A stretch of DNA of 64,000 nt. Origin: Lachnospiraceae bacterium (GTDB lineage Bacteria > Bacillota > Clostridia > Lachnospirales > Lachnospiraceae). Positions 4,266 to 64,000 of the stretch are shown piece by piece; the stretch's first letter is position 1, and the number at the start of each line of letters is the position of its first letter. The position numbers and the translations under genes were made by a program. The notes under the pieces are model-generated. The model did not search any database, was not told where the DNA came from, and saw nothing but the letters and a program-made list of their open reading frames with translations. The stretch is from contig JAZNAE010000005.1 in the NCBI GenBank assembly GCA_045586385.1, forward strand, positions 10,685 to 74,684, given 5' to 3'.

Positions 4266-5795
4266 ATGAAAGCAAAAATATATAATATAGCAAAAATAAG
4301 ACAAAACAAAATAACGGATATATATCTATCAATACTTTTAATTATTTTAAGTGCAGTGGCTTTTGCCGTGTGTATTGCCCAAGGAATGGGAAATGATATT
4401 TGGTATGATGAAGTTTTTTCTGTGAATTTTTTAAAGTATCATTACGATGAAATTGTGGCCCTTACGGCAGAGGATGTACATCCTCCCTTTTATTATTGGT
4501 ATTTGAAAGCGTTTCATGATATTGGGAAACTGATCATGCCGGGAGTGGCAAGTGAGGTGCTGGCGAAGATGGCATCACTTCTTCCCATGGCCGGTATATG
4601 GGCATATGCATTTACCCTGGTACGTAAGCGAATGGGAATACTCGTGGCAAGTTTGTTTATATTCTTAATAAGTACGATGCCACAGCTTTCCGGATATGCG
4701 GTGGAAATCCGGATGTATTCGCTTGCACTGTTCTGTATTACGGCACTCTTTTTACATAGCTATGAAATTATTTTGGAAAATAAGTTGAGGCATTGGATTA
4801 CTTTCTGGATATATGGAATCGTAACAGCATATATTCAATATTATGCATGCGTAGGCGTTGTAGCTGTATATATTGCCATGTTTGTGTTCTTTTTGATGAC
4901 AAAGAAGAAGCAGCAAATGATATACATTGCCATATGTGCATGCATATCGGTGGTGGCGTATCTCCCGTGGATTCCTTCCTTGATTGCACAGATTACGAAT
5001 GTCAGCAACAGTTATTGGATACAGCCGCTTACCATCAGAAGCATTTTCGGTTGCATGAAATTTGTATTTTTACCGGTTTTTTATGCATCGGTTAAGAAGT
5101 ATGTTTTGGCGGTTATGATGATAGCCGCATTTGGATTTGCTTATTGCTTTGCACTTGTGAAAGAGAAAAATAAGGAAGGCAGATACCTGATTTTAACGGG
5201 CGTGTTTATACCTGTATTTATAGCGTTTACAGGATTTGTGGCTTCTGCGTTAAATCGCCCTATTTTTGTATATCGTTATCTGATTCCGGGACTGGGGGCC
5301 ATGTGGCTTGTGGCGGCATATGTACTGCTAAAGTATCGCAGGGAGATGATAATGTTGCTTATGCTGATTCCATTTTTGCTTGGTGGGCAGTCCAATATGG
5401 AGAGTTTTTATGCAGATGAGCAGATAAAAACGGAAAACATGGAGATGACAAACATCCTTTTGGAAGAGTTTCCGGAAGATGCAGTAGTTCTTTGTAATTT
5501 CAATCATGTACAGGCAATTGCGGCACATTATCTGGATAATGATATTGTATTGTATGGAGGCACGCCGGAAAGTCTGATTGCGAAAATGCTGCCGAATTGT
5601 AAAGAAATGCCTGATGTGTTACAGATTCAGCAGTTGGTGCAGAAAAATGATGTGTATTTTTTTGGTAGTTTTAATGCAAGAGAAGAACTATTGAAAGAAT
5701 GGGAGCAATACGGAATTGCCTATACAGAAGAGGGAACATATTTGCTTGAACGTTATTGGTTTAATGTATATCACTTAAAATACGAAGGTGAATGA
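4266..5795 (+). CDS. GT-C fold (PMT_2/GT39-like) membrane glycosyltransferase
   Basis: IWYDE after TM1, DVHPPFYY, EIRMYSL, about 11 TM segments, soluble C-terminal domain. Confidence 0.75.
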   Translation: MKAKIYNIAKIRQNKITDIYLSILLIILSAVAFAVCIAQGMGNDIWYDEVFSVNFLKYHYDEIVALTAEDVHPPFYYWYLKAFHDIGKLIMPGVASEVLAKMASLLPMAGIWAYAFTLVRKRMGILVASLFIFLISTMPQLSGYAVEIRMYSLALFCITALFLHSYEIILENKLRHWITFWIYGIVTAYIQYYACVGVVAVYIAMFVFFLMTKKKQQMIYIAICACISVVAYLPWIPSLIAQITNVSNSYWIQPLTIRSIFGCMKFVFLPVFYASVKKYVLAVMMIAAFGFAYCFALVKEKNKEGRYLILTGVFIPVFIAFTGFVASALNRPIFVYRYLIPGLGAMWLVAAYVLLKYRREMIMLLMLIPFLLGGQSNMESFYADEQIKTENMEMTNILLEEFPEDAVVLCNFNHVQAIAAHYLDNDIVLYGGTPESLIAKMLPNCKEMPDVLQIQQLVQKNDVYFFGSFNAREELLKEWEQYGIAYTEEGTYLLERYWFNVYHLKYEGE

Positions 5796-7354
5796 GGTCA
5801 AAGAAGATTTTTATGGGAAAATGCAGACAGTTTATAAAAGAGAATAGAATATTTAGTATATTTTTTGCGGTGATGGTGAGTTACTATGCATACAATATGT
5901 TTGTCATAAAACCATGGTATGATGAACTATATACTTATTATTTTTTTGTATCCAGAGGTCCTGTCTATTCGGCAATTCATTGGCCGGTTCCCAATAATCA
6001 TGTATTTTATTCCGTTCTATCTGCTTTTTTGGATTATTTGGGGAATTCCTATATTGGGCTTAGGGGGATTTCGTTTGTTGCAGCTTGTGCAAATATGGTA
6101 CTGCTGTATAAACTGGCGGATAAATTTATGAATCGTTACATGGCGGCAGGTTGCACATTTTTATATGTGGCAGTATGGCAGGTCAATAATTTGTCCGTGC
6201 AGGGAAGAGGATATACCTTGTCCATTATGTTTTATCTCGTGGCATTACATTGTTTATATCGTATCTGCCTCGAAACGGCAGGAAAACGGGAGTATATTGT
6301 ATATGCAATCAGCTTGACAGGCGGATTGTACGCGCTGATTAGTTCTACCTTCTGGGTAATTCCGGTATGTATAGTAGGCGGATTCGTTTTACTTTTTCAG
6401 AAAAAATATAAGACATTATACAAATTAGTTGTGGCTTCTATAGTAGCAGCTGTAATGACATTTTGTTTATATACATTAATTTGGCTGGCAATCGGGTCAA
6501 ACTTAATGTCTAAAGACCCTGCCAGTGTATATTATGGTGTTTATCAAGTGAAAGTTATTTTGAAAGCACCTTTTGAAGCAATGCGTACAGGTATGGAATA
6601 TATGCTGGCAACACCGTATATTCAGGGCGATGAAAGAAGTTATATTGTTAAAGAATTGTTTCATTATTTTACCGGACTTTTTCATTTGTTCTACGCCAAT
6701 TTAGGCTATTTTCTGACTGCTTTTTGGGGGATTACGGGAATTGTGGCATTGGTGTATGCTGTGAAAAACCGCAAAAAGGATTTTTCGAAATGGTTTTGCG
6801 GAATATATCTTGCAGTTACCGTTATGATGGTGCCGGTCATGTTGATTATACAAAGCGTGCAACCTTATTACCGTGTGTTTACCTTTTTGGGAGTGCCGGT
6901 TGCGTTATCAATGGCATGGGAACTTGCGCAGCTTATAAATGCGAGAAAAAGGACAGAATTATACAGTAAAATCTGTTGTGTGGTTATGTTGCTTGTCTGT
7001 GTATATTTCTTACTCGGGGAAGGATACAACTATCAATATGCCGCGAGGGAAAATGAAATTGCGGAAATATTGGATAATGATGCAGAGACGATGGAATCCA
7101 TCTGTTATCTGGATGATTATCAGAAATATGTAATTAAATTTTATTATGGTAAGGAACCGGCAGAGGTACCGATAGAGCAGGCACAATATATTTTGTTGCC
7201 CAAAGAGTTATATGATGAAACTTATGTAACTCCAATCTGGCCTACCATTTATAACCATGATGGAATTGATTTTAGTTATTTGACCCAAAATTTTTCGTTG
7301 ATCAAGGAAAGTACTTCTTATGAGTTGTACAGAAGAAAAGGTGCAACACCATAA
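5792..7354 (+). CDS. GT-C fold membrane glycosyltransferase-like protein
   Basis: PWYDE..Y, PNNH, RGY motifs; polytopic; ATGA overlap with the upstream gene. Confidence 0.65.
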   Translation: MRSKKIFMGKCRQFIKENRIFSIFFAVMVSYYAYNMFVIKPWYDELYTYYFFVSRGPVYSAIHWPVPNNHVFYSVLSAFLDYLGNSYIGLRGISFVAACANMVLLYKLADKFMNRYMAAGCTFLYVAVWQVNNLSVQGRGYTLSIMFYLVALHCLYRICLETAGKREYIVYAISLTGGLYALISSTFWVIPVCIVGGFVLLFQKKYKTLYKLVVASIVAAVMTFCLYTLIWLAIGSNLMSKDPASVYYGVYQVKVILKAPFEAMRTGMEYMLATPYIQGDERSYIVKELFHYFTGLFHLFYANLGYFLTAFWGITGIVALVYAVKNRKKDFSKWFCGIYLAVTVMMVPVMLIIQSVQPYYRVFTFLGVPVALSMAWELAQLINARKRTELYSKICCVVMLLVCVYFLLGEGYNYQYAARENEIAEILDNDAETMESICYLDDYQKYVIKFYYGKEPAEVPIEQAQYILLPKELYDETYVTPIWPTIYNHDGIDFSYLTQNFSLIKESTSYELYRRKGATP

Positions 7355-7500: not shown

Positions 7501-8811
7501 ATGAATATAATTTTATTATCCGGCGGTAGCGGAAAGCGTTTGTGGCCGCTATCTAATGACATTCGATCCAAACAGTTTATTAAAATATTTAAAACACAGG
7601 ATGGTGAATATGAATCCATGGTGCAGAGAGTTTACAGACAGATTCGCTCCGTGGATCAGGATGCAACCGTAACGATAGCAACCTCTAAGACACAGGTTTC
7701 ATCCATTCATAATCAGCTTGGAAGTGGCGTGGGCGTTTGTGTAGAACCTTGCAGAAGAGATACTTTTCCGGCTATAGCGCTTGCCACCACTTATTTGCAT
7801 GATGTGATGGGCGTGCCGGAGGATGAGTCTGTTGTCGTTTGCCCCGTGGACCCTTATGTGAACCGGGATTATTTTGAGGCAGTACAGAAACTTGGCGAAC
7901 TTGCAAAAACGGGAGACGCCAATTTGGTTTTAATGGGGATTGAACCTACCTATCCCAGCGAAAAATATGGGTATATTATTCCGGAAGGCAAGGAAAATGT
8001 CAGCAAGGTGCAGACCTTTAAAGAAAAGCCGGATGAGGAAACCGCAAAGAGTTACATTGCACAAGGGGCGCTTTGGAACGGCGGCGTTTTTGCATACAAA
8101 TTGAAATATGTACTGCAAAAGGCACATGAACTGATTGATTATACAGATTATCATGATTTATTCCTTAAGTATGAAAGTCTTAATAAAATAAGCTTTGACT
8201 ATGCGGTGGTAGAGAAGGAAGATAACATTCAGGTAATGCGCTTCTCCGGACAGTGGAAGGATTTAGGGACATGGAATACCTTGACAGAAGCAATGGAAGA
8301 AGCAAGCATCGGAGAGGCTATTTTGAATGACAGGTGTGAAAATGTGCATGTCATTAACGAATTGGATGTGCCGATTCTTTGTATGGGACTTAAGGATGTG
8401 GTGGTATCTGCCAGTGCGGAAGGTATTTTGGTATCCGATAAGGACCAATCCAGTTATATTAAGCCTTTTGTAGATAAAATAGATAAGCAGATTATGTTTG
8501 CGGACAAGTCATGGGGGAATTTTAGGGTACTTGATGTAGAAGAAGAAAGCATGACCATCAAGGTTACCTTAAATCCGGGACATGGTATGAATTATCACAG
8601 CCATGCAAGAAGAGATGAAGTCTGGAATGTGATTTCCGGAAGCGGAAGAGCTGTTATTGACGGTCAGAGCATGCAGGTAAAGGCCGGGGATGTACTTACC
8701 ATGCAGGCAGGCTGTAAGCATACGATTTTTGCCGAGACAGAACTGAAGATGATAGAAGTACAGCTTGGTAGGGATATTTCCGTGCATGATAAGAAAAAGC
8801 ATGAATTATAA
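7501..8811 (+). CDS. manC: Mannose-1-phosphate guanylyltransferase with C-terminal cupin (PMI) domain
   Basis: ILLSGGSGKRLWPLS, EKYGYI, WNGG, ISFDYAV, W.DLGTW; C-terminal KSWG...YHSH..R.E.W cupin; ATG 7501 preferred to the ORF-track start. Confidence 0.85.
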   Translation: MNIILLSGGSGKRLWPLSNDIRSKQFIKIFKTQDGEYESMVQRVYRQIRSVDQDATVTIATSKTQVSSIHNQLGSGVGVCVEPCRRDTFPAIALATTYLHDVMGVPEDESVVVCPVDPYVNRDYFEAVQKLGELAKTGDANLVLMGIEPTYPSEKYGYIIPEGKENVSKVQTFKEKPDEETAKSYIAQGALWNGGVFAYKLKYVLQKAHELIDYTDYHDLFLKYESLNKISFDYAVVEKEDNIQVMRFSGQWKDLGTWNTLTEAMEEASIGEAILNDRCENVHVINELDVPILCMGLKDVVVSASAEGILVSDKDQSSYIKPFVDKIDKQIMFADKSWGNFRVLDVEEESMTIKVTLNPGHGMNYHSHARRDEVWNVISGSGRAVIDGQSMQVKAGDVLTMQAGCKHTIFAETELKMIEVQLGRDISVHDKKKHEL

Positions 8812-15728: not shown

Positions 15729-16679
15729 ATGAATATTTTTGAAGAAGTAAATGGTGCAAAAACCATTGCTATCAGTGGTCATATCAGACCGGACGGAGAC
15801 TGTGTAGGCTCCGTTATGGGACTTTATCTGTATTTAAAAAAGGTTTGTCCAAAAGCAAAGATTCAGGTTATGTTGGAAAAACCTGCTGATATTTTTTCCT
15901 GTATCGCGGGAGTTGAAGAAATAAACAGTGATTTCCGGTCAATAACAGACTGTTTTGATGTGTTTATTGCACTGGATTGCGAAAAATCAAGGTTGGGAGA
16001 AGCAGAAAAATTTTTTGACTTGGCCAGGAAGAAAATAAATATTGACCATCATATCAGCAATGCTGCGGGCTGCGGGGACATCAATTTTGTTGTACCCACA
16101 GCCAGCTCTGCAAGCGAACTGGTGTACAAGGTTTTGGAGGATAAATCCCAAATTGATGCAGAGATTGCCAAGGCACTGTACATAGGAATCATTCATGATA
16201 CCGGTGTGTTCCAATATTCCAATACCGCACCGGAAACATTAGAGATTGCGGCAAAACTGATTTCTTACGGTTTTGATTTCCCGAGGCTGATTGACAGTAC
16301 TTTTTATGAGAAAACATATGTACAGAATCAAATTATGGGAAGAGCATTATTGGAAAGTATTTTATTTATGGACGGCAAATGTATTGTCAGCATGATAGAT
16401 AAGAAAACCATGGCTTTTTACAATGCAAAGCCCCATGACCTGGACGGAATCGTAAGCCAGCTTCGAAATACAAAGGGTGTGGAGTGTGCCATATTCATGT
16501 ATGAAATTGGCTCATTGGAATATAAAGTAAGTCTTCGTTCAAACGGAGATCTTGATGTGGCAAAGGTTGCTTCCATATTTGGGGGCGGCGGTCATGTAAA
16601 GGCGGCAGGTGTGACCATGCAGGGAACTTTCCATGATATTGTCAATAATTTATCGGCACAGATTGCAAAACAAATATAA
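15729..16679 (+). CDS. nrnA: DHH/DHHA1 phosphoesterase (NrnA-like nanoRNase/pAp phosphatase)
   Basis: GHIRPDGD, LDC, IDHH, DTG.F, GGGGH..AAG; start at ATG 15729 from RBS spacing. Confidence 0.88.
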   Translation: MNIFEEVNGAKTIAISGHIRPDGDCVGSVMGLYLYLKKVCPKAKIQVMLEKPADIFSCIAGVEEINSDFRSITDCFDVFIALDCEKSRLGEAEKFFDLARKKINIDHHISNAAGCGDINFVVPTASSASELVYKVLEDKSQIDAEIAKALYIGIIHDTGVFQYSNTAPETLEIAAKLISYGFDFPRLIDSTFYEKTYVQNQIMGRALLESILFMDGKCIVSMIDKKTMAFYNAKPHDLDGIVSQLRNTKGVECAIFMYEIGSLEYKVSLRSNGDLDVAKVASIFGGGGHVKAAGVTMQGTFHDIVNNLSAQIAKQI

Positions 16680-52820: not shown

Positions 52821-52880
52821 ATTGCTAGATTGCTTGTTGTATAATAGTTCTATAACTATTAATGTTTTGGAGGATTTGTG

Positions 52881-54326
52881 ATGAAGAAGATTCTTTTTGT
52901 CGCATCGGAAGGGGTTCCGTTTATCAAAACAGGAGGATTGGCAGACGTAGTCGGTTCGCTTCCGAAGTGCATTGATAAGAATTATTTTGATGTCAGGGTA
53001 GTCCTTCCCAAGTATTCCTGCATGAAACAGGAAATGAAGGATAAACTTAGTTACGTGACTCATTTTTATATGGATTTTCATTGGAAAAATGAGTACGTAG
53101 GCGTAATGTACGCAGAGGTAGATGGGGTAAAATACTATTTTATTGATAATGAGATGTTCTTTACGGGATTCAAGCCTTACAGTGATAATGCTTTGTTTGA
53201 AATCGAAAAATATGCATTCTTTTCCAAAGCAGCATTATCAATTTTGCCGGTAATTGATTTCAGACCGGATGTGATTCATTGTCATGATTGGCAGACAGGA
53301 CTTATTCCTGTTTATTTAAAAGAGAGATTCCAGGGAAATGAATTTTATCGCGGCATTAAGTCCGTTATGACGATTCACAACCTGAAGTTTCAGGGTAAAT
53401 GGAGTGTGAAAGAAGTTCAGGATATCACAGGATTGCCTGATTACTACTTCACACCGGACAAGTTAGAATCCTTTAAGGATGCGAATTTACTGAAGGGTGG
53501 TCTTGTTTATGCAGACGCTATCACGACTGTTAGTGATACCTACGCAGAAGAAATTAAGACAGCTTTTTACGGAGAGAATTTGGACGGACTTCTTCGTGCC
53601 AGAAGCCATGATCTTAGAGGTATCGTAAACGGTATTGATACAGATGACTTCAATCCGGAAACAGATCCTTATATTGAACATAATTATAATGCGATGAATT
53701 TCCGGAAGGAAAAGATTAAAAATAAACGTGCCCTGCAGGCTGAACTTGGTCTTGAACAGGATGATAAGAAGTTTATGATCGGTATTGTTTCCAGACTGAC
53801 AGACCAGAAGGGATTCGATTTGATTGCTTATATTATGGACGAACTTTGTCAGAGCAATGTGCAGATTGTGGTACTTGGTACAGGTGAAGAACAGTATGAA
53901 AATATGTTCCGTCACTTTGACTGGAAGTACAATAACAAGGTTTCTGCAAATATATTCTATTCAGAGGCTTTGTCCCATAAGATTTATGCAGCATGTGATG
54001 CATTTTTGATGCCTTCACTGTTTGAGCCCTGTGGACTTAGTCAGCTGATGAGTCTTCGTTACGGAACAGTGCCCATTGTAAGAGAAACAGGCGGATTAAA
54101 AGATACCGTACAGCCGTATAATGAGTATGAGAGCAGCGGAACAGGATTTTCCTTTACCAATTACAATGCACATGAAATGCTCGGCACGATTTATTATGCT
54201 GAGAAGATATATTACGAAAAGAAAAGAGAATGGAATAAAATTATTGACCGCGCCATGGCGGCAGACTTTTCATGGAATGCATCAGCGAAGAAATATCAGG
54301 AGATGTATGACTGGCTGATCGGCTAA
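52881..54326 (+). CDS. glgA: Glycogen synthase
   Basis: KTGGLADV, HCHDWQT, TIHN, GI.NGID, PS.FEPCGL.Q, GGLKDTV; ATG 52881 after GGAGG. Confidence 0.96.
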   Translation: MKKILFVASEGVPFIKTGGLADVVGSLPKCIDKNYFDVRVVLPKYSCMKQEMKDKLSYVTHFYMDFHWKNEYVGVMYAEVDGVKYYFIDNEMFFTGFKPYSDNALFEIEKYAFFSKAALSILPVIDFRPDVIHCHDWQTGLIPVYLKERFQGNEFYRGIKSVMTIHNLKFQGKWSVKEVQDITGLPDYYFTPDKLESFKDANLLKGGLVYADAITTVSDTYAEEIKTAFYGENLDGLLRARSHDLRGIVNGIDTDDFNPETDPYIEHNYNAMNFRKEKIKNKRALQAELGLEQDDKKFMIGIVSRLTDQKGFDLIAYIMDELCQSNVQIVVLGTGEEQYENMFRHFDWKYNNKVSANIFYSEALSHKIYAACDAFLMPSLFEPCGLSQLMSLRYGTVPIVRETGGLKDTVQPYNEYESSGTGFSFTNYNAHEMLGTIYYAEKIYYEKKREWNKIIDRAMAADFSWNASAKKYQEMYDWLIG

Positions 54327-54347
54327 TAATTTTGGAGCGTAAAAGCG

Positions 54348-56012
54348 ATGCCAACAAAAAAGAGAAATGACGGAATCATATTGCAGGCGGGGATTCTGGC
54401 CACAGCCGGAATCATCGTCCGCATCATCGGACTGTTATATAACAGCCCGATGGCTGCGATTCTGGGAGATGAGGGTTTCGGATATTACAGTATGGCATAT
54501 AATGCATATGTCATTGTACTGTTGGTCTCCTCCTATAGTATCCCTTCAGCTATTTCAAAAGTAATTGCCCAGAAACTCGCATTAAAAGAATACAGAAACG
54601 CACATCGTATTTTTAAATGTGCACTTATTTACGTGCTGGTAGTAGGTGGTATTGCCAGCTTATTTGTATTTTTTGGCGCAGGTCTTTTGGTGCAGGTGGA
54701 ATATGCCAGATTGCCGCTTATGGTACTTGCCCCCGTCATCTTCTTCAGTGGAATTTTAGGTGTACTCAGAGGATATTTCCAGGCACACAAAACCATGATA
54801 CAAACATCTGTATCCCAGATAGTAGAACAGATTTTAAATGCTTTGTTCAGTATTTTGATGGCATATATTTTGGTAAAACAATTTGCCGGACTGCCTCAAA
54901 GTGAAAAGCTTTCTTACGGTGCCGCAGGCGGTGCGGTAGGTACCGGTGTAGGAGTTCTTGCTGCACTGTTATTTATGTTTGGTGTTTACTGTTTAAATAA
55001 AAAAACAATTTACAGGAGAATTGAAAAAGACCGTAGCGATAAAGAAGACTCCTACGGAGAGATTTTCAGAATGATAATTACGGTGGTGACACCGTTTATT
55101 TTAAGTACATTTATCTATAATGCTAACACGTTTATCAATCAGACCATTTATCAAAACATGATGATGGGGGAAAAAGGTCTTCTTGATACCCTTGTGGCAT
55201 CCCAGATGGGGGTTGCAGGAAAGGCTGTTAAGGTATCCAATATTCCCATTGCCCTTTCCTCTGCTATGGCGGCGGCATTAATTCCCGGAATTTCCGGTGA
55301 TTTTGCAAAGAAGGATTTAAAGGGGGTAAAGAAAAAAGTGGCCAAGTCCATGAAAGTTACTATGCTGGTATCTATTCCTGCAGCGGTTGGTATCGGAGTA
55401 CTTGCCAAGCCCATTATGTGGGTATTGTATCCGCAAAGGGAATCTATCGATCTGGCCTCATCACTTTTAATGGTTTTGGCAATCAGCGTTGTGTTTTACG
55501 GTATGTCTACCATATCGAATGCAGTACTTCAGTCGGTAGGTAAATTAAACAGTCCGGTAATCAATGCGGCAATTGCGCTGGTGGTTCAAACAATGGTGCT
55601 TATGGTTATGCTTATGGTTTGTGACGAGGCTTACGGACCATACTATTATATTATTGCAATGGTTTGCTATGCCTTGCTGGTAAGTGTTTTAAATGCTTTT
55701 TCCATAAAGCGGGCTATAAACTACAGGCAGGATATGGATAAAACCTTTGCGAGACCTTTCTTTTCTGCGGCAATTATGGGAGGCGTTGCATTCGGTGTTT
55801 ATCATGGCATTTATGCGCTTTTGCCGATTAACATAGTGGCCTTGGCGGTAGCAATCGGAATTGCGATTCCCATTTACTTTGTATTGGTAATTCGTTTGGG
55901 TGCTGTGAATGAAGAGGAACTTCGCAGTATGCCGAAAGGTTATATGTTGATCCATTTGGCAAAAAAGATGGGGATTTTAAAAAATAAAAAAGATAAAAAT
56001 GAGAATAAATAA
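54348..56012 (+). CDS. SpoVB/MurJ-like polysaccharide flippase (MOP superfamily)
   Basis: R.IG..Y, G.Y..AY, P.A.SK.IA, RGYFQ, SQ.VEQ, many TM segments. Confidence 0.85.
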   Translation: MPTKKRNDGIILQAGILATAGIIVRIIGLLYNSPMAAILGDEGFGYYSMAYNAYVIVLLVSSYSIPSAISKVIAQKLALKEYRNAHRIFKCALIYVLVVGGIASLFVFFGAGLLVQVEYARLPLMVLAPVIFFSGILGVLRGYFQAHKTMIQTSVSQIVEQILNALFSILMAYILVKQFAGLPQSEKLSYGAAGGAVGTGVGVLAALLFMFGVYCLNKKTIYRRIEKDRSDKEDSYGEIFRMIITVVTPFILSTFIYNANTFINQTIYQNMMMGEKGLLDTLVASQMGVAGKAVKVSNIPIALSSAMAAALIPGISGDFAKKDLKGVKKKVAKSMKVTMLVSIPAAVGIGVLAKPIMWVLYPQRESIDLASSLLMVLAISVVFYGMSTISNAVLQSVGKLNSPVINAAIALVVQTMVLMVMLMVCDEAYGPYYYIIAMVCYALLVSVLNAFSIKRAINYRQDMDKTFARPFFSAAIMGGVAFGVYHGIYALLPINIVALAVAIGIAIPIYFVLVIRLGAVNEEELRSMPKGYMLIHLAKKMGILKNKKDKNENK

Positions 56013-56032
56013 ATAACCTCTTGGAAATAATA
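56003..56032 (+). promoter_or_regulatory. Forespore (sigmaF/sigmaG)-type promoter
   Basis: GAATA-15-GGAAATAATA. Confidence 0.6.
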
Positions 56033-56067
56033 CCACTGTAAGTGAATATTTTTTCAGGAGGTTTTTT

Positions 56068-56253
56068 ATGGCAAATTTATCAGAACTTGACTTGCAGAAC
56101 ATCCGTCATTTAATGACAGGCTACGACACAACACATTGCAAATTAAAGGAATACGCATGCGAAGCGACTGACCCTAAAGTAAAGCAGTTTTTTGAAAAAG
56201 GTGCACAGTCCGCTATGGACAATAAAAATACACTGATGAAGTTTTTACAGTAG
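56068..56253 (+). CDS. Small spore-associated protein (Coat-F partner-like)
   Basis: 61 aa, strong AGGAGG RBS, helical half-ferritin pattern (A.DP.VK..F); paired with a Coat F-like gene. Confidence 0.6.
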   Translation: MANLSELDLQNIRHLMTGYDTTHCKLKEYACEATDPKVKQFFEKGAQSAMDNKNTLMKFLQ

Positions 56254-56266
56254 GGAGGGTGATAGT

Positions 56267-56527
56267 ATGCAGTTAAATGAAAAAACAATGGTATCAGATA
56301 CACTTACAGGTATCAACGGAGAATTGGTCCGTTTCGGTGAAATGATTGCACAGACAGAAAATAAGGAATTAAAGCAGACTTTAAAGCAGTTTAGAAATGC
56401 CTGCGAACAGTCCCAGGAAGAGATCTATCAGATTGCAAGAGATAAGGCTTATTATGTGCCTGCTTCCAAAGCGACACAGGAAGAAGTGGACCATGTAAAG
56501 AGTCTGTTTACAGAAAAGACATTATAA
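56267..56527 (+). CDS. Coat F domain spore protein
   Basis: EK.MV.D.L, TEN.ELKQ.L...RN..E..Q.EIY..A..K.YY. Confidence 0.75.
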   Translation: MQLNEKTMVSDTLTGINGELVRFGEMIAQTENKELKQTLKQFRNACEQSQEEIYQIARDKAYYVPASKATQEEVDHVKSLFTEKTL

Positions 56528-56554
56528 AAAATTGTATAATATAAAATCAAGTAG

Positions 56555-56594
56555 AAAGCATAGCTGCTCATTCAAGTGGGCAGCTATGTTTTTA
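56555..56594 (+). terminator. Terminator after the Coat-F pair
   Basis: AAAGCATAGCTGCTCA-ttcaag-TGGGCAGCTATGTTTT. Confidence 0.8.
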
Positions 56595-56617
56595 TATTAT
56601 CTAAATTGTGCGTTATA

Positions 56618-56646
56618 TTGACATAAATAGACAAAAATGATAAAAT
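56618..56646 (+). promoter_or_regulatory. Strong sigmaA promoter of the zinc-ribbon locus
   Basis: TTGACA-17-TAAAAT with extended TG. Confidence 0.8.
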
Positions 56647-56680
56647 TTTTGTAAAGTTTTTGTATACATAGGAGGGCAAT

Positions 56681-57136
56681 ATGGGTTTTTTAGACAACAT
56701 GGGCAAAACCATTTCTGATGCCAGCCAGGGAGCACTCAAAAAAGGCAGAGAAATGGCAGATGTCGCAAAGTTTAATTCTTTGATTAACGACGAAGAAAAG
56801 AGGATTACCGGTATTTATGAACAGATCGGAAAGAAGTATGTAGAGGTTTACGGAGATTCTCCGAACGAAGCATTTGCAGAACTTTTAGAACTTTTAAAGG
56901 CTTCACAGGATAAGGTTGAAGAATACCGTAATCATGTAAAGGAATTAAAGGGCGTGTCTAATTGTCCTACATGTGGAGCAGAGGTTGCTAACAATGCGCT
57001 TTTCTGTGCTGTATGCGGAACGAAGATGGCAGAGCCTGCGGCAGAACCTGTAGCGGCAGAAGTACATTGTACAGACTGTGGCGCAGTGATTGCACCCGGT
57101 AGTAAATTCTGTACATCATGTGGCAAACCGATGTAA
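56681..57136 (+). CDS. Coiled-coil + double zinc-ribbon protein
   Basis: CPTC..CAVC and CTDC..CTSC; amphipathic N-terminus; no TM. Confidence 0.85.
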   Translation: MGFLDNMGKTISDASQGALKKGREMADVAKFNSLINDEEKRITGIYEQIGKKYVEVYGDSPNEAFAELLELLKASQDKVEEYRNHVKELKGVSNCPTCGAEVANNALFCAVCGTKMAEPAAEPVAAEVHCTDCGAVIAPGSKFCTSCGKPM

Positions 57137-57179
57137 GTCGGTAAAAAATAATACAAATGATTTTTGAGAGGAGAAACAA

Positions 57180-57590
57180 ATGAAAGCAAAATTAGGAATT
57201 TCAGTTGGACTTTTAGGAGCAGCAATCTATTTTGCTGCATTATTCGGAGGATATACTCCCGTAATTTTATTAGTTGGATACGTACTTTTATTTGAAGAAA
57301 ACGAATGGTTAAAGAGAGCAGCTGTTAAAGCGGCAGTGTTAATGATTTCCATCACATTCATTTTGGCAGTAATCGGTTTGATTCCTGACTTACTGTCATG
57401 GGTTAACTCTTTGGTAGCAGTATTTAAGGGTTCCTTTAATTATGGTGTGCTCAGCGCAATCATTAGTGTTATTACAAAAGCAATCGATATCATCAGAACA
57501 TGCCTGTTCCTTCTCTTAGGTGTAAAAGCTTTAAATCAGGGTACAGTTGCAGTTCCCGTTGTTGATCAGATTGTAAATAAATATTTTTAA
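57180..57590 (+). CDS. Small polytopic membrane protein
   Basis: 136 aa, 3-4 hydrophobic segments, GAGGAG RBS. Confidence 0.75.
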   Translation: MKAKLGISVGLLGAAIYFAALFGGYTPVILLVGYVLLFEENEWLKRAAVKAAVLMISITFILAVIGLIPDLLSWVNSLVAVFKGSFNYGVLSAIISVITKAIDIIRTCLFLLLGVKALNQGTVAVPVVDQIVNKYF

Positions 57591-57605
57591 CTGGAGGAAA
57601 TAGAA

Positions 57606-58268
57606 ATGGCTAAGTTTTGTTCTAATTGCGGAGCACAGATGAATGATGAAGATAAGGTATGTGGACAGTGCGGAACACCTGTGACAGGTGCAAACGTAAA
57701 TCCCGCACCGGCAGCAGCACCCGTTGCAGATGAAGAAAAAAAGAAAAATAATAATAAGATTATCGCACTCATTGCAATTGCGATTGTTGCTATCGTGGCA
57801 ATTGTTGTGGTTGCGAATATTGCAAGTAACTTTACCGGTTATAAGGGCACCCTTAATAAAATGGTAAAGGCATTAAAAGATGATGATACAGATGTTTTAG
57901 TAGACCTTGCAAGTTCCATCAGTAATGAAGTAAATGAGGCATGGTACGGCGATGATTATGAAGATTATTATGAAGATGCTGTAGATGGTGTTCTTGATAA
58001 GTATGAAGACAAGGTAGAAAATATCAAGAAAATTTCTTATGAAATTACTGACGAAACAGAACTTTCCAAAAGACAAATGGAAGATCTTGAAGAAGCGATG
58101 ATTGACAACTACGATATGGATTTCAGTGATATTAAGAAAGTAGTAAAGGTTGACTTGAAGATAACTGTAAAGGGTTCCAAAAAGTCAGGTTCTTACAATG
58201 TAGATGACCTAATTATGGTGAAAGAAGATGGTGGTTGGAAAATCCATTACGGTAGTTTAAGTTATTAA
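57606..58268 (+). CDS. Zinc-ribbon + TM + extracellular acidic alpha/beta domain protein
   Basis: CSNC..CGQC, Pro/Ala linker, KKKNNNK stop-transfer, TM, acidic domain ending KEDGGWKI. Confidence 0.8.
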   Translation: MAKFCSNCGAQMNDEDKVCGQCGTPVTGANVNPAPAAAPVADEEKKKNNNKIIALIAIAIVAIVAIVVVANIASNFTGYKGTLNKMVKALKDDDTDVLVDLASSISNEVNEAWYGDDYEDYYEDAVDGVLDKYEDKVENIKKISYEITDETELSKRQMEDLEEAMIDNYDMDFSDIKKVVKVDLKITVKGSKKSGSYNVDDLIMVKEDGGWKIHYGSLSY

Positions 58269-58321
58269 TTTGTAGAGTCGTACGGAAAGCGGCTGTTGCT
58301 ACGAAGATATGAAAAGTAATG

Positions 58322-58357
58322 AACCTCTCCGTGTATGTGCATGGGGAGGTTTTTTTT
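58322..58357 (+). terminator. Intrinsic terminator immediately before the vWA gene RBS
   Basis: AACCTCTCCGTG-tatgtg-CATGGGGAGGTT + T-run. Confidence 0.75.
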
Positions 58358-58374
58358 GAGGGAGAGACGGTGCA

Positions 58375-61300
58375 ATGAATGTTTGGCTGCAAATAGGATT
58401 AGGATTATTACCGGGAGCGTTGGTTGCGATGATTATTTTGATAAAGCGACGGGCGTTTTGTTTTGGTACGCTTTTTTCAACCTTCCTGCTTTTGGCGGGC
58501 TGTGGCATATCCCTATTTTTTGGCGGCACTGCTCTTTTGAAGGATGGCACTATGGAAGTACAGATGTCTGAAAAGAAAATGATGGCATTTGCCAATGCAC
58601 TTGCAGAAGAAGGCGCCTATGACGCAGCTATTGAGGTTTTAGAACAATATAGCAGTGAATACGGATATAATGATGAATGCAGACTGTTAACGGCACGTAT
58701 TGCAGTTATGGAAGGAGATTTCGAAAGTGCCCACGGTCTGTATCATTATTTGTGTGAGAATACAGATTTAATTTCTGCAGATACGGAGGAAGTTGTATTT
58801 GTAGATATGAAATTGGAAAACAGTACGGCAGACCTTGTTATGATAGAATATCTGAAGTCTGTGGGAGAAAATATTGAAGACTATGGTTACACAGAAAGTA
58901 TATACGAGGATATCAAAAAGAGTGAACAGAAAACAATTGATGATATTAAAAGAGATATCAAAAATGCGATAGAAGACAGTTATAGTATTTCTGATGAGTG
59001 CTCGGACTGTGCAGAAGCAGTAGCAGGCATTTTAGAAGTATATGAGGATGTGTCAGAAAATAATTACGCAACTCCAGAGGAAAGTGAAGAAAAAGAAAAG
59101 AACTTGCGCAGATATGGCAGAACTTTTGAAGATATAGAAAGCAATGCACCGGAATATATGGCGATGGAATGTGTGGAAAAAGCACGTATCAAGTCCTATG
59201 TGATAAGCGGTGATTTTGAGCAGATAGCAGAAAAATTGGAAGAAAAAGCTTCTTATCATGAACTGATGGTAGTAGCTGAGTTATATATGAGCGGTTTGGT
59301 CAAAGAATCTGATTTTTCAGATGACTATCAAAAGATTGACAACGAAAATGCTGATTTGATAGAGGATAAGTTGTCTGCAATTTATAAAGAAAATTCAGAT
59401 GATTTGAATAAACAGGAAAAGAAAGCATTTAAAGAACGTATTGAGGCAATTAACGTACAGTTAAAAGATCCGGTTCTTGCATCCGTAAAGGAAGAACTGA
59501 CAGATGTAGCCAACGAGGAAGCAGGAACAGATGCAACGAAAGTATACCTGGAACTTGCAAAAATAGAAAATTATTTCGGTAATGAAACATCTACCGATTC
59601 CTATTTAAGTACAGCTATCTACAGTTCTCCGGAATGTGAAGATGACAGTTATGTTTCCGCAATGTCACAGATTATTACGGTCATCAGTAATGATGAAGAA
59701 AATGATAAAGAAAACATTAAAAATGTTGCTACCTATGTGGAAAACGTGTTAGACCATTCTCTGACAGTGAATGTAGAAAGTATTGTTTCGCCTCAAAATC
59801 AGATTGCAGTGGAAGAGGAGGATGAATCTGTTGACTTTACAAGAACTACCGTTGATTATGTGAGCCGGGTTAAAAGTGCCATTTCTATCGGTAAAATAGA
59901 TGCTTCCGGTTTTGAAAAAATTGTGTCTACAGTACAGATAGACAGTGATTATCTGACAGATGTGGATGAACTGAAGGCAGCACTGAAAGTATACGATTGT
60001 GGTGCGGAAATTTCAGATTTTACACTTAAGAAAATAAATTATGAAGGCTCCAACATCATGCTTGTCTGTGATGTGTCCGGCAGTATGAGCGGAAACATCC
60101 AGGATTTAAGGGATGCGGTAGTTACCTTTATTACGGATAAAAATGCAAATGAAGATATTGCGGTAGTGACTTTTGATGATACCATTGTTGACACAAAGTT
60201 TTTCGGAACGCCGGATGATGAACTGATTGCATTTGCCCAAAACATGCAAATAGCCGGCGGTACAGACATTTTCTCAGCGGTTACAAACTGTTTAGATGGT
60301 TTCTCGGCAGAGCCGGAGGATAATAATGTCCTTATCTTAATGACAGATGGACAGGATAATTATGCCAGAGATGCAGAAACAATCTATGCGGAAATAGGCA
60401 CGCGTGCATTACAAAAGGGAATCACTGTCTATACCATGGGACTTGGCACAAGTGTGGATACAAACTATTTAAGCATCATCGCCGGAAGCGGCAATGGAGA
60501 GTTTCTTTATGTATCAGACAGTTCCAGTTTATCGTCATTCTATGATTTGCTGCATGCACAGGTATATAATCAATATGAAATTACCTATCAGGCACAGGAT
60601 ACAATCACTATGTCAGGACGTACTTTGGAAGTCGTATTGCCGGATGAAAATCTCCGTGATGTGAAGACTTACTCATTGAAAGATGCCGCTGATGTGCAGG
60701 GAGGACTTCCAATCAGCAATGGCATAACAATACAGGGAATGAATCCCAAATACATATATAAAGGAAAGCAGGATACTTCTGTTAAATTAAAAGGAACAGG
60801 ATTTAAAGAAGACAGTAAGATGTCTGTTAAACTTAACGGAAATATTGACTATTCCGTTACCGCTACTTATGTGGATGCAGAGACCTATACAATTACCATT
60901 CCTGCAAGTGTAGCAGTGGGTAAATATAATGTGGAAATTACCATTGACGGTCATAAAAAAGTACTTCAAAACGGATTTTCCGTCATTGCCAAATGCGGAG
61001 AGAAGAAGACTGCATTTGGCCCCTATGTCTTTACGTCAGCTGAGAAAATAGAAAATGGTATTGATAACTGTACGCTACGTGGAAATGTTACCATGAACGG
61101 CTGGTTACATTTTAAAGGTGATGTGACAATTGTAGGAAATTTGGAAAATGGAGATTCTGTCAGGGTGACAGATGACAGTGGCTCGTATGTTGAATTTGAT
61201 ACTGTTACAGCATCCGGATTTGGACAATATCTGGCGCAAAAAGGTGTTTCGCTGGATATACCTGCACTATATAATTTCACATTGTATAATGACCAGCAAA

Positions 61301-62487
61301 ACTTATATGATTATGAAAATTATATGGTAGATGATATTTCAACGGGCACTTTAGAAATTTACAATTTGCTTAAACTTAACAGTCTTGTAGTGCGTTTGTA
61401 TCCAAACAGTATCGGCATCCATTATTATAATGGGTTGCCCAACCTACCTTTCCAGGATAAAATCCTAATTTTAAAATCACAGGAATTGTTTGAAATTTCT
61501 TGTGACGGAAGCGCACAGATTACCAATGAAAATGTTGGTATTGTTTTAAACGCAGAGTATGAAGGTAATGATGATAAAGGATTTAATACACCTGTAAAAC
61601 TTCTAAATGCACCGGTTCAGTTTAATGGCGATGTTAAGGTTGACATTAATACTATCAGTAATGAATATGCCGTTGGTGCTATGATTAAATTCATGATTTT
61701 AGATAAAAGTTCGCCGGGACTTGGAGCAGAAGTTAAATGGAAAGGAAATCTGGTTCCCGATTCCGTAAAACTAAGTTTGGAATTAGGCAAAGCGCTGAAA
61801 CTGCCTACAGCGGTTCCGCTTGAAATGAATGATTTTAGCTTTGAGGTGTCAGACATAAATTCGGCAGTGGAGAATGGAACATGGACAAGCCTTAAATTTA
61901 CAGGGGCATTTTCCTTGACAAGTTTGAATCTTAAGACGTATATGCCTAAACTGGAGAAATACATAGATGATGTTAGCATTTTATCCATGCCGGAAACCAC
62001 AGCATCTATACAAATTTCGCCTTTCCAGATTGAAACATCTGCAAAGCTAATGTTTTTGGATACAATTCAACTTGCCCAGTCAGAAGTGCAGATAGGTAAC
62101 TTTGACTATACCAATCCGCTTCTTCAGTTTGATAATGAAGCTGTGAAAGGTGTCAAGGCAGCACTGAAAACAGGTATCATGTGGGAAAGCAAAAAAGGAC
62201 AAATATCTTTAGATTTGTCCGGTAAGGGAGAACTTGATGCTCACTCAAGATTCGTAGGAGCAATATATGAAGGAACTGCGGAATATGATATTAAGTTATG
62301 GTTATTTAATTCGGAAGACAAGTATTTCGGTACATATGCGCTTGGTTTTTATATAACACATGAAGGTGAAAAACAGTTTGTTTTTGCTTATAAGTATCTG
62401 AACAAAGACGGGGAATATGAAGGTGATTTCCACAGTATTGGTGCAGACAGCATATGGGAAAAGAATAAGAGCGGTGTATTAACTTAA
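58375..62487 (+). CDS. 1370-aa membrane-anchored protein: TPR-like helical region, vWA (MIDAS), IPT/TIG Ig-like domain, beta-rich C-terminal region
   Basis: Two N-terminal TMs around KRR; DVSGS (60070-60084), GGT, ILMTDG; IQGMNP..GTGF..V..GKYNVEI IPT pattern. Confidence 0.8.
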   Translation: MNVWLQIGLGLLPGALVAMIILIKRRAFCFGTLFSTFLLLAGCGISLFFGGTALLKDGTMEVQMSEKKMMAFANALAEEGAYDAAIEVLEQYSSEYGYNDECRLLTARIAVMEGDFESAHGLYHYLCENTDLISADTEEVVFVDMKLENSTADLVMIEYLKSVGENIEDYGYTESIYEDIKKSEQKTIDDIKRDIKNAIEDSYSISDECSDCAEAVAGILEVYEDVSENNYATPEESEEKEKNLRRYGRTFEDIESNAPEYMAMECVEKARIKSYVISGDFEQIAEKLEEKASYHELMVVAELYMSGLVKESDFSDDYQKIDNENADLIEDKLSAIYKENSDDLNKQEKKAFKERIEAINVQLKDPVLASVKEELTDVANEEAGTDATKVYLELAKIENYFGNETSTDSYLSTAIYSSPECEDDSYVSAMSQIITVISNDEENDKENIKNVATYVENVLDHSLTVNVESIVSPQNQIAVEEEDESVDFTRTTVDYVSRVKSAISIGKIDASGFEKIVSTVQIDSDYLTDVDELKAALKVYDCGAEISDFTLKKINYEGSNIMLVCDVSGSMSGNIQDLRDAVVTFITDKNANEDIAVVTFDDTIVDTKFFGTPDDELIAFAQNMQIAGGTDIFSAVTNCLDGFSAEPEDNNVLILMTDGQDNYARDAETIYAEIGTRALQKGITVYTMGLGTSVDTNYLSIIAGSGNGEFLYVSDSSSLSSFYDLLHAQVYNQYEITYQAQDTITMSGRTLEVVLPDENLRDVKTYSLKDAADVQGGLPISNGITIQGMNPKYIYKGKQDTSVKLKGTGFKEDSKMSVKLNGNIDYSVTATYVDAETYTITIPASVAVGKYNVEITIDGHKKVLQNGFSVIAKCGEKKTAFGPYVFTSAEKIENGIDNCTLRGNVTMNGWLHFKGDVTIVGNLENGDSVRVTDDSGSYVEFDTVTASGFGQYLAQKGVSLDIPALYNFTLYNDQQNLYDYENYMVDDISTGTLEIYNLLKLNSLVVRLYPNSIGIHYYNGLPNLPFQDKILILKSQELFEISCDGSAQITNENVGIVLNAEYEGNDDKGFNTPVKLLNAPVQFNGDVKVDINTISNEYAVGAMIKFMILDKSSPGLGAEVKWKGNLVPDSVKLSLELGKALKLPTAVPLEMNDFSFEVSDINSAVENGTWTSLKFTGAFSLTSLNLKTYMPKLEKYIDDVSILSMPETTASIQISPFQIETSAKLMFLDTIQLAQSEVQIGNFDYTNPLLQFDNEAVKGVKAALKTGIMWESKKGQISLDLSGKGELDAHSRFVGAIYEGTAEYDIKLWLFNSEDKYFGTYALGFYITHEGEKQFVFAYKYLNKDGEYEGDFHSIGADSIWEKNKSGVLT

Positions 62488-62498
62488 TTTGAGGTGAC

Positions 62499-64000
62499 AT
62501 GATGAAGATATCTAGGAAACAAAAAATCCAAATATGGATACAGATAATGGTACTGTGTTTATCCTTTTGGATGAATGCAGTATCTGTACAGGCTGCACCC
62601 AAACAGGCAGAAATAGTGACAACCGATACACAAGGGGATTTAACGGTTCTCTTTACATTTGATAAAGAAGTAGTAGATATTACTTTTATATCACCTTCCG
62701 GAGAACGTAAAACAAATGGGGACAGTGATGTAGAATATGCAGCAGGTGAACTGTGGTGTACTTACCGCATTAAAGATGCCAAGGCCGGCACATGGAAAGT
62801 AGAATATGATTTAGGCAGAAACAGTGAAATCACCTATGATATTGTAGAAGATGAAAGCGGATTATGGATTCAATATTTGACTGTTTCAGAAACGGAGAGC
62901 GAGAAGGTGTCAGTTGCTTTTCAGGCAGATTATGAGCCGGAAAAGATTTACTATAATTATGAGCTGTACGCAGTGAGCACAACAGATAAAGATTCTTTAA
63001 TAGAGCTTACAAAGGGGAGTGCAAGATCCGGGGAAGAAAAGAGCATTGATGTGAAACTGAGCGGCCTTTCCGGAGATAATTATGTGCTTCGGCTGGAAGT
63101 ATATTATGATACCGGTACGGTAGAAGTGTTTGATACCATGATATCGGATGCTTTTGATTATAAAAATCCCAATGAACCGCAGGCAATTGAAAATTTTAAG
63201 GTGAAGGTGGATGCCGGTAATCTGGTATGCCATATTGATTGGGATGAATATGTAGGCTGGGGAAGTGATGCCTATCAGGTCGAAGCAAAAGTGGCAGGAG
63301 AAACCGTATACGAAGCTGATTGGGAAAGAGATGTAAGGACGGACAGTATTTTGTATCCTGCTGATGCTACAGCCATGGAAATCAGCTTGTCATACAAGGA
63401 CGGAAATATTAGGTCGGAAAAGAAGATAAAAACAATTCCGCTAACAGATGAAAGTTTGACAATCATCACACCGGAAGTGACCAATTCCTCCCAAGCGGTT
63501 TTGAAGTACAGTGCCAAAAAAGAACGCATGTTAAATGTGAACGTAAACGGCGTGGATGGCATGTATCAGGTGAGTGGTGAGGGAGAAGTTTCATTTGACC
63601 TTATGGAAGGTATGAATACTATCTATGCGGAAATGGAAACGGATGATCTGATTACTTATATCGTAGATGCGGAAGTTTACTGTGATTTCATTCCGCCGGA
63701 AATTAAGTTGTATGAAGATTTGGACGGAAAAACTTTTTATACAGACAGTGTAGCGATTATAGGTAAAATGTCAGGTGGAAATATCCTCCGTATTGCAGGA
63801 GAAACCATAACATCGGATGAAAACGGTGATTTTACATATCATGCCAACTTGTCATTGGGTGAAAATCTGATTGAACTGGAAGCGGAAGATGTAAACGGTA
63901 ATACATCCAAAATGGTTTTGACTTTATATAAAGGATCGGATTTAGTAGGTGGAGTCATTACCAAAATAGGGTTGGCAGAGTTGCTACCATTATTAGTGGC
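62499..64000 (+). CDS. Secreted Ig-domain-rich protein with probable C-terminal TM anchor (3' end cut by window edge; absent from the ORF track)
   Basis: GAGGTG RBS, ATG 62499; MMKISRKQKIQIWIQIMVLCLSFWMNAVSVQA signal peptide; in-frame SDENGDFTYHANLSLGENLIELEAEDVNGN Ig motif and hydrophobic GLAELLPLLV at the edge; I did not check every codon in between for stops. Confidence 0.75.
   Translation, partial: MMKISRKQKIQIWIQIMVLCLSFWMNAVSVQAAPKQAEIVTTDTQGDLTVLFTFDKEVVDITFISPSGERKTNGDSDVEYAAGELWCTYRIKDAKAGTWKVEYDLGRNSEITYDIVEDESGLWIQYLTVSETESEKVSVAFQADYEPEKIYYNYELYAVSTTDKDSLIELTKGSARSGEEKSIDVKLSGLSGDNYVLRLEVYYDTGTVEVFDTMISDAFDYKNPNEPQAIENFKVKVDAGNLVCHIDWDEYVGWGSDAYQVEAKVAGETVYEADWERDVRTDSILYPADATAMEISLSYKDGNIRSEKKIKTIPLTDESLTIITPEVTNSSQAVLKYSAKKERMLNVNVNGVDGMYQVSGEGEVSFDLMEGMNTIYAEMETDDLITYIVDAEVYCDFIPPEIKLYEDLDGKTFYTDSVAIIGKMSGGNILRIAGETITSDENGDFTYHANLSLGENLIELEAEDVNGNTSKMVLTLYKGSDLVGGVITKIGLAELLPLLV

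Follow-up and report, generated by a model that had tools for sequence, protein, structure and literature searches.

A conserved gene pair, candidate for a MIDAS-dependent surface adhesin or receptor, within a clade-specific line-up of modules in a Lachnospiraceae genome

Introduction

RrgA, GBS104 and SpaC are von Willebrand factor A (vWA) adhesins of pili. ANTXR proteins are eukaryotic type I proteins, which feature a C-terminal transmembrane (TM) segment and a cytoplasmic tail. ArnA and ArnB of Sulfolobus, a zinc-ribbon (ZnR/FHA) and a vWA protein encoded together, are soluble cytoplasmic regulators. In TcaA of Staphylococcus aureus the zinc finger is intracellular, and one TM segment separates it from the rest of the protein, which is extracellular (PMC10328498). 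The locus described here, 7.4 kb long, combines zinc ribbons, TM segments and a vWA protein in five genes, g1 to g5. It resides in a Lachnospiraceae bacterium (assembly GCA_045586385.1, contig JAZNAE010000005.1), at positions 56618–64000 of the 64,000 nt stretch of DNA analyzed, hereafter called the window.

According to a preliminary description of the sequence, the five genes would constitute a single transmembrane system. The interpretation favored here, with a probability of roughly 0.55, is that the locus is a clade-specific line-up of independent modules, in which the functional unit is the g4-g5 pair, a putative surface adhesin or receptor complex dependent on a metal ion-dependent adhesion site (MIDAS). 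Bacterial surface proteins carrying vWA and immunoglobulin (Ig) domains are already known; the g4-g5 family itself is uncharacterised. No description of it was found in a literature search, and exact-sequence look-ups of the window g4 and g5 gave no match on record.

Results

Conservation of the g4-g5 pair

The two genes, and the regions recognized in the g4 product, partly from an AlphaFold2 (AF2) model, are the following:

58375..62487, plus strand: g4, 1370 aa; TM hairpin, helical region, vWA domain, Ig/IPT domain, beta-rich C-terminus
58387..58509, plus strand: TM hairpin of g4, residues 5–45; two hydrophobic helices with a KRR loop between them
58552..59877, plus strand: acidic helical region of g4, residues ~60–501; 22–25% D+E, all-helical in AF2 from residue 171
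59881..60039, plus strand: small beta domain of g4, residues 503–555, from AF2 secondary structure; precedes the vWA domain
60046..60567, plus strand: vWA domain of g4, residues 558–731; Pfam VWA at 560–723 (2.6e-14), and AF2
60724..60987, plus strand: Ig/IPT-like beta-sandwich of g4, residues 784–871; CoaZ_rpt_PGGG 32.2 bits (NCBIfam cut-off 30), Ca_tandemer, and AF2
61003..62484, plus strand: C-terminal beta-rich domain of g4, residues 877–1370; family-specific, ~500 aa
62502..64000 and past the window end, plus strand: g5; GAGGTGA Shine-Dalgarno, start 14 nt after the g4 stop

Gene neighbourhoods were compared at 18 loci carrying a full-length g4 homologue (26–86% identity, the window itself counted), found in Lachnospiraceae, Ruminococcus, Acetatifactor, Oscillospiraceae and unclassified Clostridia. 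In all 18, the gene right after g4 is a g5 homologue; in L019 the two overlap. Ruminococcus sp. Marseille-P6503 is among the strains with the pair. The pair has a recognizable format, a g4 of ~1300–1450 aa followed by a gene encoding a signal peptide, Ig repeats and three TM helices. The short distance between the genes in the window suggests that they are translationally coupled. The flanks are unrelated across loci, and include a cellulase and a NUDIX gene, an alpha-amylase and a methyl-accepting chemotaxis protein, or an AraC regulator. No g1, g2 or g3 homologue is found nearby in 11 of the 18 loci. In L008 an unrelated zinc-ribbon protein is encoded upstream of the pair, on the opposite strand.

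One locus of the set (L010) is labelled as deriving from a Bacteroidaceae bacterium. The N-termini of its g4 and of the upstream transporter are nearly identical to those of an Oscillospiraceae metagenome-assembled genome (L011). Mis-binning is the simplest explanation of this likeness, rather than an occurrence of the family in Bacteroidota.

Domains of the g4 protein

A pattern for a K/R loop between the two helices of the TM hairpin is matched by 78 of 119 full-length g4 representatives, and the segment following TM2 is poor in these residues. By the positive-inside rule, the KRR loop would lie inside the cell and ~1300 aa outside, TM2 working as a signal anchor. An extracellular g4 is consistent with a partner that bears a signal peptide, and with the extracellular character of the Ig-type repeat.

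The acidic helical region (~450 aa) has no family match above threshold. The vWA domain features an intact MIDAS, the residues of which (D566/S568/S570/T630/D658) are invariant in 20 g4 homologues; the DxSxS motif is present in 118 of the 119 full-length representatives. The AF2 model, built with 59 homologues, covers residues 171–1370 (pLDDT 79.9, pTM 0.62), and shows that the C-terminal domain ends as a meander of antiparallel strands, 10–20 residues each. Matches of the model in the PDB are driven by the vWA domain, and include ANTXR2 (top), ITIH1, ArnB, the LapA vWFA domain and BatB. Fold searches in both PDB and BFVD are dominated by vWA domains, with nothing found for the helical or the C-terminal regions.

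The C-terminal domain was also searched as a profile. Against PDB sequences only noise was obtained (ASF1, E about 1). Against Pfam, a FapA beta-solenoid was matched by 2 of 17 members (E 0.015) and Choline_bind_1 by 1 of 17 (E 0.22), neither of which is meaningful. Among 1.84 billion representative proteins the domain occurs in 230 clusters, only in the g4 architecture; nearly all measure ~1300–1450 aa and carry the domain at the C-terminus, and the shorter matches are probably fragments. The search for g4 homologues gave 79 full-length proteins (39–86% identity), named only 'VWA domain-containing protein'.

The g5 protein

The window ends inside g5, and the visible 500 aa include the signal peptide and a Glucodextran_B-type Ig domain. 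The full-length protein (618 aa) is available as P0080, found by homologue search, which derives from the same contig and is 100% identical over the window part. The signal peptide (VQA/A) is followed by five Ig/FN3-like sandwiches, three C-terminal TM helices and a basic tail. The hydrophobic helices span residues 497–515, 529–547 and 585–603, with K/R-rich stretches after the first and the third. Five beta-sandwich domains followed by helices are also seen in the AF2 model (pLDDT 81.5), which in Foldseek searches matches generic Ig/FN3 arrays only. No sorting motif of the type [LIVS]Px[TSA]G is present in g4 or in the full-length g5, and no SLH, LysM, CW_binding or SH3 wall-binding domain was detected in either.

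At least eight g5 orthologues (P0105, P0111, P0131, P0132, L008, L009, L010, L012) terminate with a CxxC...CxxC zinc ribbon. Zn_Ribbon_1 is precomputed in Pfam for P0105, P0111, P0131 and P0132; in scans it reached 25.2 bits in L008, at the cut-off, and 23.3 bits in L009, just below. The ribbon tail is present in 4 of 66 closer homologues, and in 4 of the 8 most distant loci (L007–L014). A cytoplasmic zinc ribbon may thus be viewed as an optional accessory of the pair, judging from these tails.

These results agree in large part with what the preliminary description said of the two proteins. In g4 the two TM segments with the KRR loop, the MIDAS and the Ig/IPT domain were all found again; the TPR-like region fell short of threshold (TPR_19 at residues 76–120, 22.2 bits versus a cut-off of 25). 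The portrait of g5 as an Ig-rich, coupled protein with a C-terminal anchor holds for P0080, the anchor itself not being visible in the window, which contains only the first residues of TM1. The statement that no sortase motif, MoxR ATPase or pilin is present was correct for the two proteins and for the neighbourhoods annotated with Pfam, and g4-g5 fit neither the sortase-pilus nor the MoxR-vWA scheme. Of the notion of an integrin-like vWA/Ig surface complex, the tight conserved pair, the intact MIDAS and the Ig domains are supported; the integrin architecture is not, since no beta-propeller is predicted and the anchor of g4 is N-terminal.

Divergence of the pair among close relatives

In comparisons of the window with its close relatives, g4 (78–86% identity) and g5 (~80%) are the fastest-diverging genes of the neighbourhood; glgA, the MurJ-like and CotF-like genes, and g2 are 95–100% identical. 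Divergence is unevenly spread along g4. Residues 1–750 are 82–100% identical among close relatives, and residues 551–650, within the vWA region, are 100% identical; identity goes down to 38–80% in residues 751–1370. Such a combination of an unchanging binding module and a hypervariable distal domain is expected of a surface protein which faces a changing ligand, the immune system, or phages.

In P0003, the relative at 78% identity, g4 residues ~1001–1200 (window 61375–61974) are 38–50% identical, and the flanks 66–80%. Such a mosaic block suggests the recombinational replacement of a surface patch.

Genes upstream of the pair

The features found between the upstream CotF-like gene and g4 are listed below:

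56554..56593, plus strand: terminator-like hairpin, 18 pairs then a T-run; closes the upstream CotF-like gene
56618..56646, plus strand: sigmaA-type promoter, TTGACA-17-TAAAAT, with extended -10 TG; 11 of 12 positions match
56681..57136, plus strand: g1, 151 aa; no TM segment, helical N-terminus, four CxxC pairs (two zinc ribbons)
57180..57590, plus strand: g2, 136 aa; about four hydrophobic TM segments
57606..58268, plus strand: g3, 220 aa; N-terminal Zn_Ribbon_1, single TM segment at 52–70, acidic ectodomain of ~150 aa
58321..58360, plus strand: hairpin and U-tract between g3 and g4; 14 bp, GC-rich, then eight U

Paired CxxC...CxxC ribbons in g1 score above the Pfam gathering thresholds of both Zn_Ribbon_1 (1.7e-13, 50.3 bits, cut-off 25) and DZR (1.9e-10, 41.2 bits, cut-off 27.3). 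g2 has no Pfam or NCBIfam match; its family counts >900 homologues, and the g2 proteins of window and L001 are 98.5% identical. g1 and g2 adjoin g4-g5 only in the window, L001, L004, L023 and L005, which form the closest Lachnospiraceae clade; the contig of L005 ends inside the g1-g2 module. Among distant members of the g2 family, the two genes are found without g4-g5 in L021, in a chromosomal context, and in L022, where MobA and resolvase genes are part of the element that carries them. g1-g2 make up a separate and widespread module. In L022 (5097–10056) the module includes a triple-zinc-ribbon g1, a 91-aa Cys-rich lipoprotein, g2 and a g3-like protein made by a zinc ribbon and a TM segment (ZnR-TM). 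It lies between the MobA/MobL and resolvase genes and a serine recombinase, and adjoins an LRR_5 protein; because it resides on a mobile element, the g1-g2 module appears to be horizontally mobile.

The zinc ribbon of g3 also scores above the Pfam gathering threshold (Zn_Ribbon_1 32.2 bits, cut-off 25). Orthologues of g3 (56–90% identity) lie directly 5' of g4 in the window, L001, L004, L005, L023, L018 and L024. More distant homologues (32–46% identity) were recovered from metagenome contigs with an alignment as query, none being found with g3 alone, and g4-g5 do not follow them. At the loci L028–L051, which essentially correspond to one species group, as a neighbouring gene is 88–98% identical, the g3 homologue is followed, where visible, by homologues of g6, encoding a ZnR-TM-acidic-YARHG protein, and g7, encoding an Amidase_3 protein; the g3-g6 gap measures ~17 nt in L034. 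g6 and g7 are the two genes found right after g5 in L001 and L004, the close relatives used as proxies for the DNA downstream of the window. In the window clade, the g4-g5 pair is thus a cassette placed between g3 and g6.

g3 is one of many ZnR-TM-ectodomain proteins of Firmicutes. L004 carries at least five ZnR-TM genes within 15 kb. Arrays of ZnR-TM paralogues are a feature of these genomes, so that finding one of them beside another gene is expected by chance and carries little weight. Downstream of g5, a tandem ZnR-TM array, with ectodomains of YARHG, TPR, LRR, and a 730-aa unknown type, covers positions 16001–23644 of L004 and 15993–19374 of L001. An SH3_3-Amidase_3 lipoprotein sits within the array, which is a hot spot of paralogues.

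In L034, from one metagenome species group, a secreted or lipoprotein vWA protein is encoded on the minus strand (5335–6713), divergent from the g3-g6-g7 operon. It appears as two open reading frames (ORFs) of 92 and 367 aa, probably because of a frameshift in the assembly. A g3-type gene is here found for a second time, independently, near an extracellular vWA gene. At 7670–7700 of the same locus, the g6 homologue is apparently frameshifted at a T homopolymer after the start codon (ATGTTTGTAC instead of ATGTTTTGTAC); the ORF as called lacks the N-terminal zinc ribbon, and the frameshift is probably an error of sequencing or assembly.

Transcription signals

All five genes are on the plus strand, with gaps of 43, 15, 106 and 14 nt in the ORF listing. 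The hairpin which ends the CotF-like gene isolates the g1 transcription unit, and the promoter at 56618–56646 is the top site of a consensus scan of 8 kb. Between g3 and g4 the hairpin at 58321–58360 has a folding energy of -21.6 kcal/mol (z = -3.2 versus shuffles). It is kept in five loci (L001, L004, L005, L023, L018), survives even where the remaining spacer is deleted, and features two compensatory pairs (U-A to G-C, and U-G to A-U). On these grounds it is read as an intrinsic terminator or attenuator, which would end or throttle the g1-g3 transcript. Transcription of g4-g5 in the window clade is assumed to occur by read-through from the g1 promoter; located behind the hairpin and U-tract, the pair would be transcribed at a level below that of g1-g3.

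Much of what had been said of this part of the locus is correct: the strong sigmaA promoter is there, as are the soluble double-zinc-ribbon g1, the small polytopic g2 and the ZnR-TM-ectodomain g3. The hairpin between g3 and g4 had been overlooked. The grouping of the genes into one system does not survive the neighbourhood check across genomes, the five-gene set failing to co-occur and only g4-g5 being constant. Nor is there support for the idea that g1-g3 couple the surface complex to the cytoplasm, as g1-g2 and g3 are separable, and a hairpin lies between g3 and g4. A tie of zinc ribbons to the vWA/Ig pair is retained through the g5 tails; any role in signalling would rest on a tail which is facultative.

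Features of the surrounding DNA

Almost all long ORFs of the window (1–64000) are on the plus strand, and its GC skew stays positive from end to end, which is expected of a leading-strand chromosomal segment. Upstream of the locus (52878–56527) are found a glgA-like glycogen synthase, a 554-aa MurJ/SpoVB-type flippase, and two CotF-like proteins (61 and 86 aa), 95–100% identical in L001 and L004, which hint at a spore-former. A link of the pair to sporulation, hinted at by the nearby CotF-like, SpoVB/MurJ-like and Spo0A_C genes, was rejected because g4-g5 loci beyond the closest clade lack those neighbours. No Rfam family reached its gathering score over the window, and no riboswitch was found; this includes c-di-GMP riboswitches, one of which would have backed an adhesin regulon.

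Discussion

A model of the g4-g5 complex

According to the favored interpretation, g4 would be held by its N-terminal TM hairpin, exposing ~1300 aa on the outside of the membrane in a Gram-positive anaerobe of the gut. g5 would be exported via its cleavable signal peptide and held by the three C-terminal TM helices, leaving the basic tail in the cytoplasm. The two proteins may form a stoichiometric hetero-complex at the outer face of the membrane. Via a divalent cation, the invariant MIDAS would bind an acidic residue of a ligand, which may be g5 itself or a partner that stays constant; the distal part, facing the environment, would be the hypervariable C-terminal domain of g4. Together, the two proteins would work as an adhesin or a surface receptor.

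Several points weigh against this model. An adhesion role is the default assumption for any extracellular MIDAS vWA domain, and the location of the bulk of g4 outside the cell is predicted from the positive-inside rule and the types of domain only. As fold searches are dominated by the vWA domain, the C-terminal domain may be pore-forming, wall-binding or enzymatic. The zinc-ribbon tail of some g5 proteins, and the presence of g3 upstream in one clade, may leave room for a zinc-ribbon link. The consensus scan gave no promoter-like site for g4 3' of the hairpin. Finally, the sequence of the locus is present in DNA gut metagenomes only, with no match among RNA-seq runs.

Alternative interpretations

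It is unlikely that all five genes make one transmembrane system, in which g1-g3 would connect the vWA/Ig complex outside the cell with the cytoplasm, and so serve in sensing or signalling. Such a system would account for the single strand, the single strong promoter and the short g1-g2-g3 gaps, for the identical gene order in L001, L004, L005 and L023, for the g3 orthologues preceding g4 also in L018 and L024, for the ribbons fused to the cytoplasmic tail of g5, and for the g3 homologue near a secreted vWA protein in the unrelated arrangement of L034. It is contradicted by the majority of g4-g5 loci, which do without g1-g3 homologues, by the occurrence of g1-g2 alone and on a mobile element, by the g3 homologues of up to 46% identity that are not followed by g4-g5, and by the conserved hairpin between g3 and g4. 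The paralogue arrays described above make the adjacency of g3 a chance expectation.

An envelope maintenance or organising complex also seems improbable. Here the acidic helices and the MIDAS cation would attach to polymers of the wall or to enzymes which remodel it, with g3, the YARHG protein and the SH3-amidase as partners in the clade. The MurJ/SpoVB-like flippase upstream, the TcaA-like topology of g3 in the window clade, and the Amidase_3 lipoprotein and YARHG protein just 3' of g5 in L001 and L004 speak for it, and TcaA has an effect on how wall teichoic acid is displayed in S. aureus (PMC10328498). Outside one clade, however, g4-g5 keep none of these neighbours, and no wall-binding domain was detected in either protein; a fast and mosaic divergence of the g4 C-terminus suits a surface facing the environment better than a housekeeping wall factor.

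Doubts are somewhat stronger for a previously undescribed, integrin-like receptor of Gram-positive gut bacteria, made of two subunits. One would combine the invariant MIDAS vWA head with the hypervariable recognition domain; the other, g5, would be an Ig stalk, the cytoplasmic tail of which would relay binding across the membrane, with a zinc ribbon fused to it in some lineages and perhaps provided in trans by proteins of the g3 type in others.

It is very improbable that g4-g5 are a vWA membrane complex of the Bat (aerotolerance) or MoxR kind, or a module serving phage defence or exclusion: BatB and an aerotolerance-related protein from B. fragilis (3ibs, 4jdu) are among the matches of the vWA fold, the succession of TM hairpin, vWA domain and TPR-like helices recalls BatA/BatB, and the cassette acts as an accessory unit with variable flanks, but these fold matches are generic vWA matches, g4 lacks a BatA_N or Bat-type match, and no MoxR ATPase or DUF58 gene is present in any neighbourhood annotated with Pfam; the absences of sortase and pilin genes were judged on those of L001, L002, L018, L019, L020 and L023. 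The phage-defence variant was rejected, as PADLOC gave no match for either protein.

Significance of the pair

Among the dominant commensals of the gut are Lachnospiraceae, Ruminococcaceae and Oscillospiraceae, the surface biology of which is mostly unknown. With ~1800 residues predicted to be exposed, g4-g5 may plausibly determine attachment to mucus of the host, plant particles, other cells or phages. The two-gene, rather than the five-gene, unit is the right construct to delete, express and fold. The C-terminal ~500 aa and the acidic helical ~450 aa of g4 are candidate new domain families. There is also a lesson for annotation, as ZnR-TM genes form shuffled arrays, and adjacency is weak evidence of shared function.

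Comparison with known systems

Integrins are heterodimers of two type I subunits, with a head formed by a beta-propeller and a betaI (vWA) domain and with cytoplasmic tails that signal. g4-g5 differ from them, as no beta-propeller is predicted in the g4 and g5 models, and g4 is anchored N-terminally, unlike type I subunits. The ArnA/ArnB system resembles the locus in that zinc-ribbon and vWA proteins are encoded together, and ArnB and VWA2 are among the fold matches (8s05, 5a8j). ArnA and ArnB contact each other directly; in the locus the predictions place the ribbons in the cytoplasm and the vWA domain outside the cell, and a direct contact is not expected.

g3 matches the NCBIfam TcaA model NF053815 (40.3 bits, equivalog cut-off 550; E 1.8e-10), aligning residues 3–145 to positions 2–142 of 463. 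The likeness concerns the N-terminal topology only, as g3 measures 220 aa versus about 460 aa of TcaA, and the ectodomain is unrelated beyond the juxtamembrane part.

BatA and BatB share with g4 an N-terminal TM pair, then a vWA domain, and TPR-like helices, and BatB (3ibs) is matched with a TM-score of 0.70 on the target. Bat proteins measure about 300–600 aa, and their genes come with MoxR, DUF58 and BatC-E, none of which is found in the annotated g4-g5 neighbourhoods; a MoxR/AAA gene is missing from positions 54000–64000 of the window as well. BatA_N gives no match in g4, where Pfam finds only VWA and a weak TPR.

The vWA adhesins of pili and biofilms bring together, on a bacterial surface, a vWA domain with MIDAS and domains of Ig type, as predicted for g4-g5, and metal-dependent ligand binding is the presumed mode of action. 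The pair would in principle work in the way of the vWA adhesins of pili and of ANTXR2, without being a member of either family. PilB of S. sanguinis (7ba2), Mfa5 of P. gingivalis (6to1) and the LapA vWFA domain of P. fluorescens (9no5) are found among the g4 fold matches. In contrast to these adhesins, g4-g5 lack an LPxTG motif, and are integral to the membrane rather than wall-linked or borne by a fibre; no sortase gene, pilin gene or type I secretion partner is present in the annotated g4-g5 neighbourhoods.

ANTXR2/CMG2 carries, as g4 is predicted to do, an extracellular MIDAS vWA domain directly followed by an Ig-like domain in a membrane-anchored protein. The folds align over about 350 columns (9rt4, E 3e-10; 9rt2, E 8e-10) at 13–15% identity. 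The N-terminal TM hairpin of g4 differs from the C-terminal anchor of ANTXR, and g4 further departs from it by the additional acidic helical region of ~450 aa, the unique beta domain of ~500 aa, and an obligate partner gene encoding Ig repeats.

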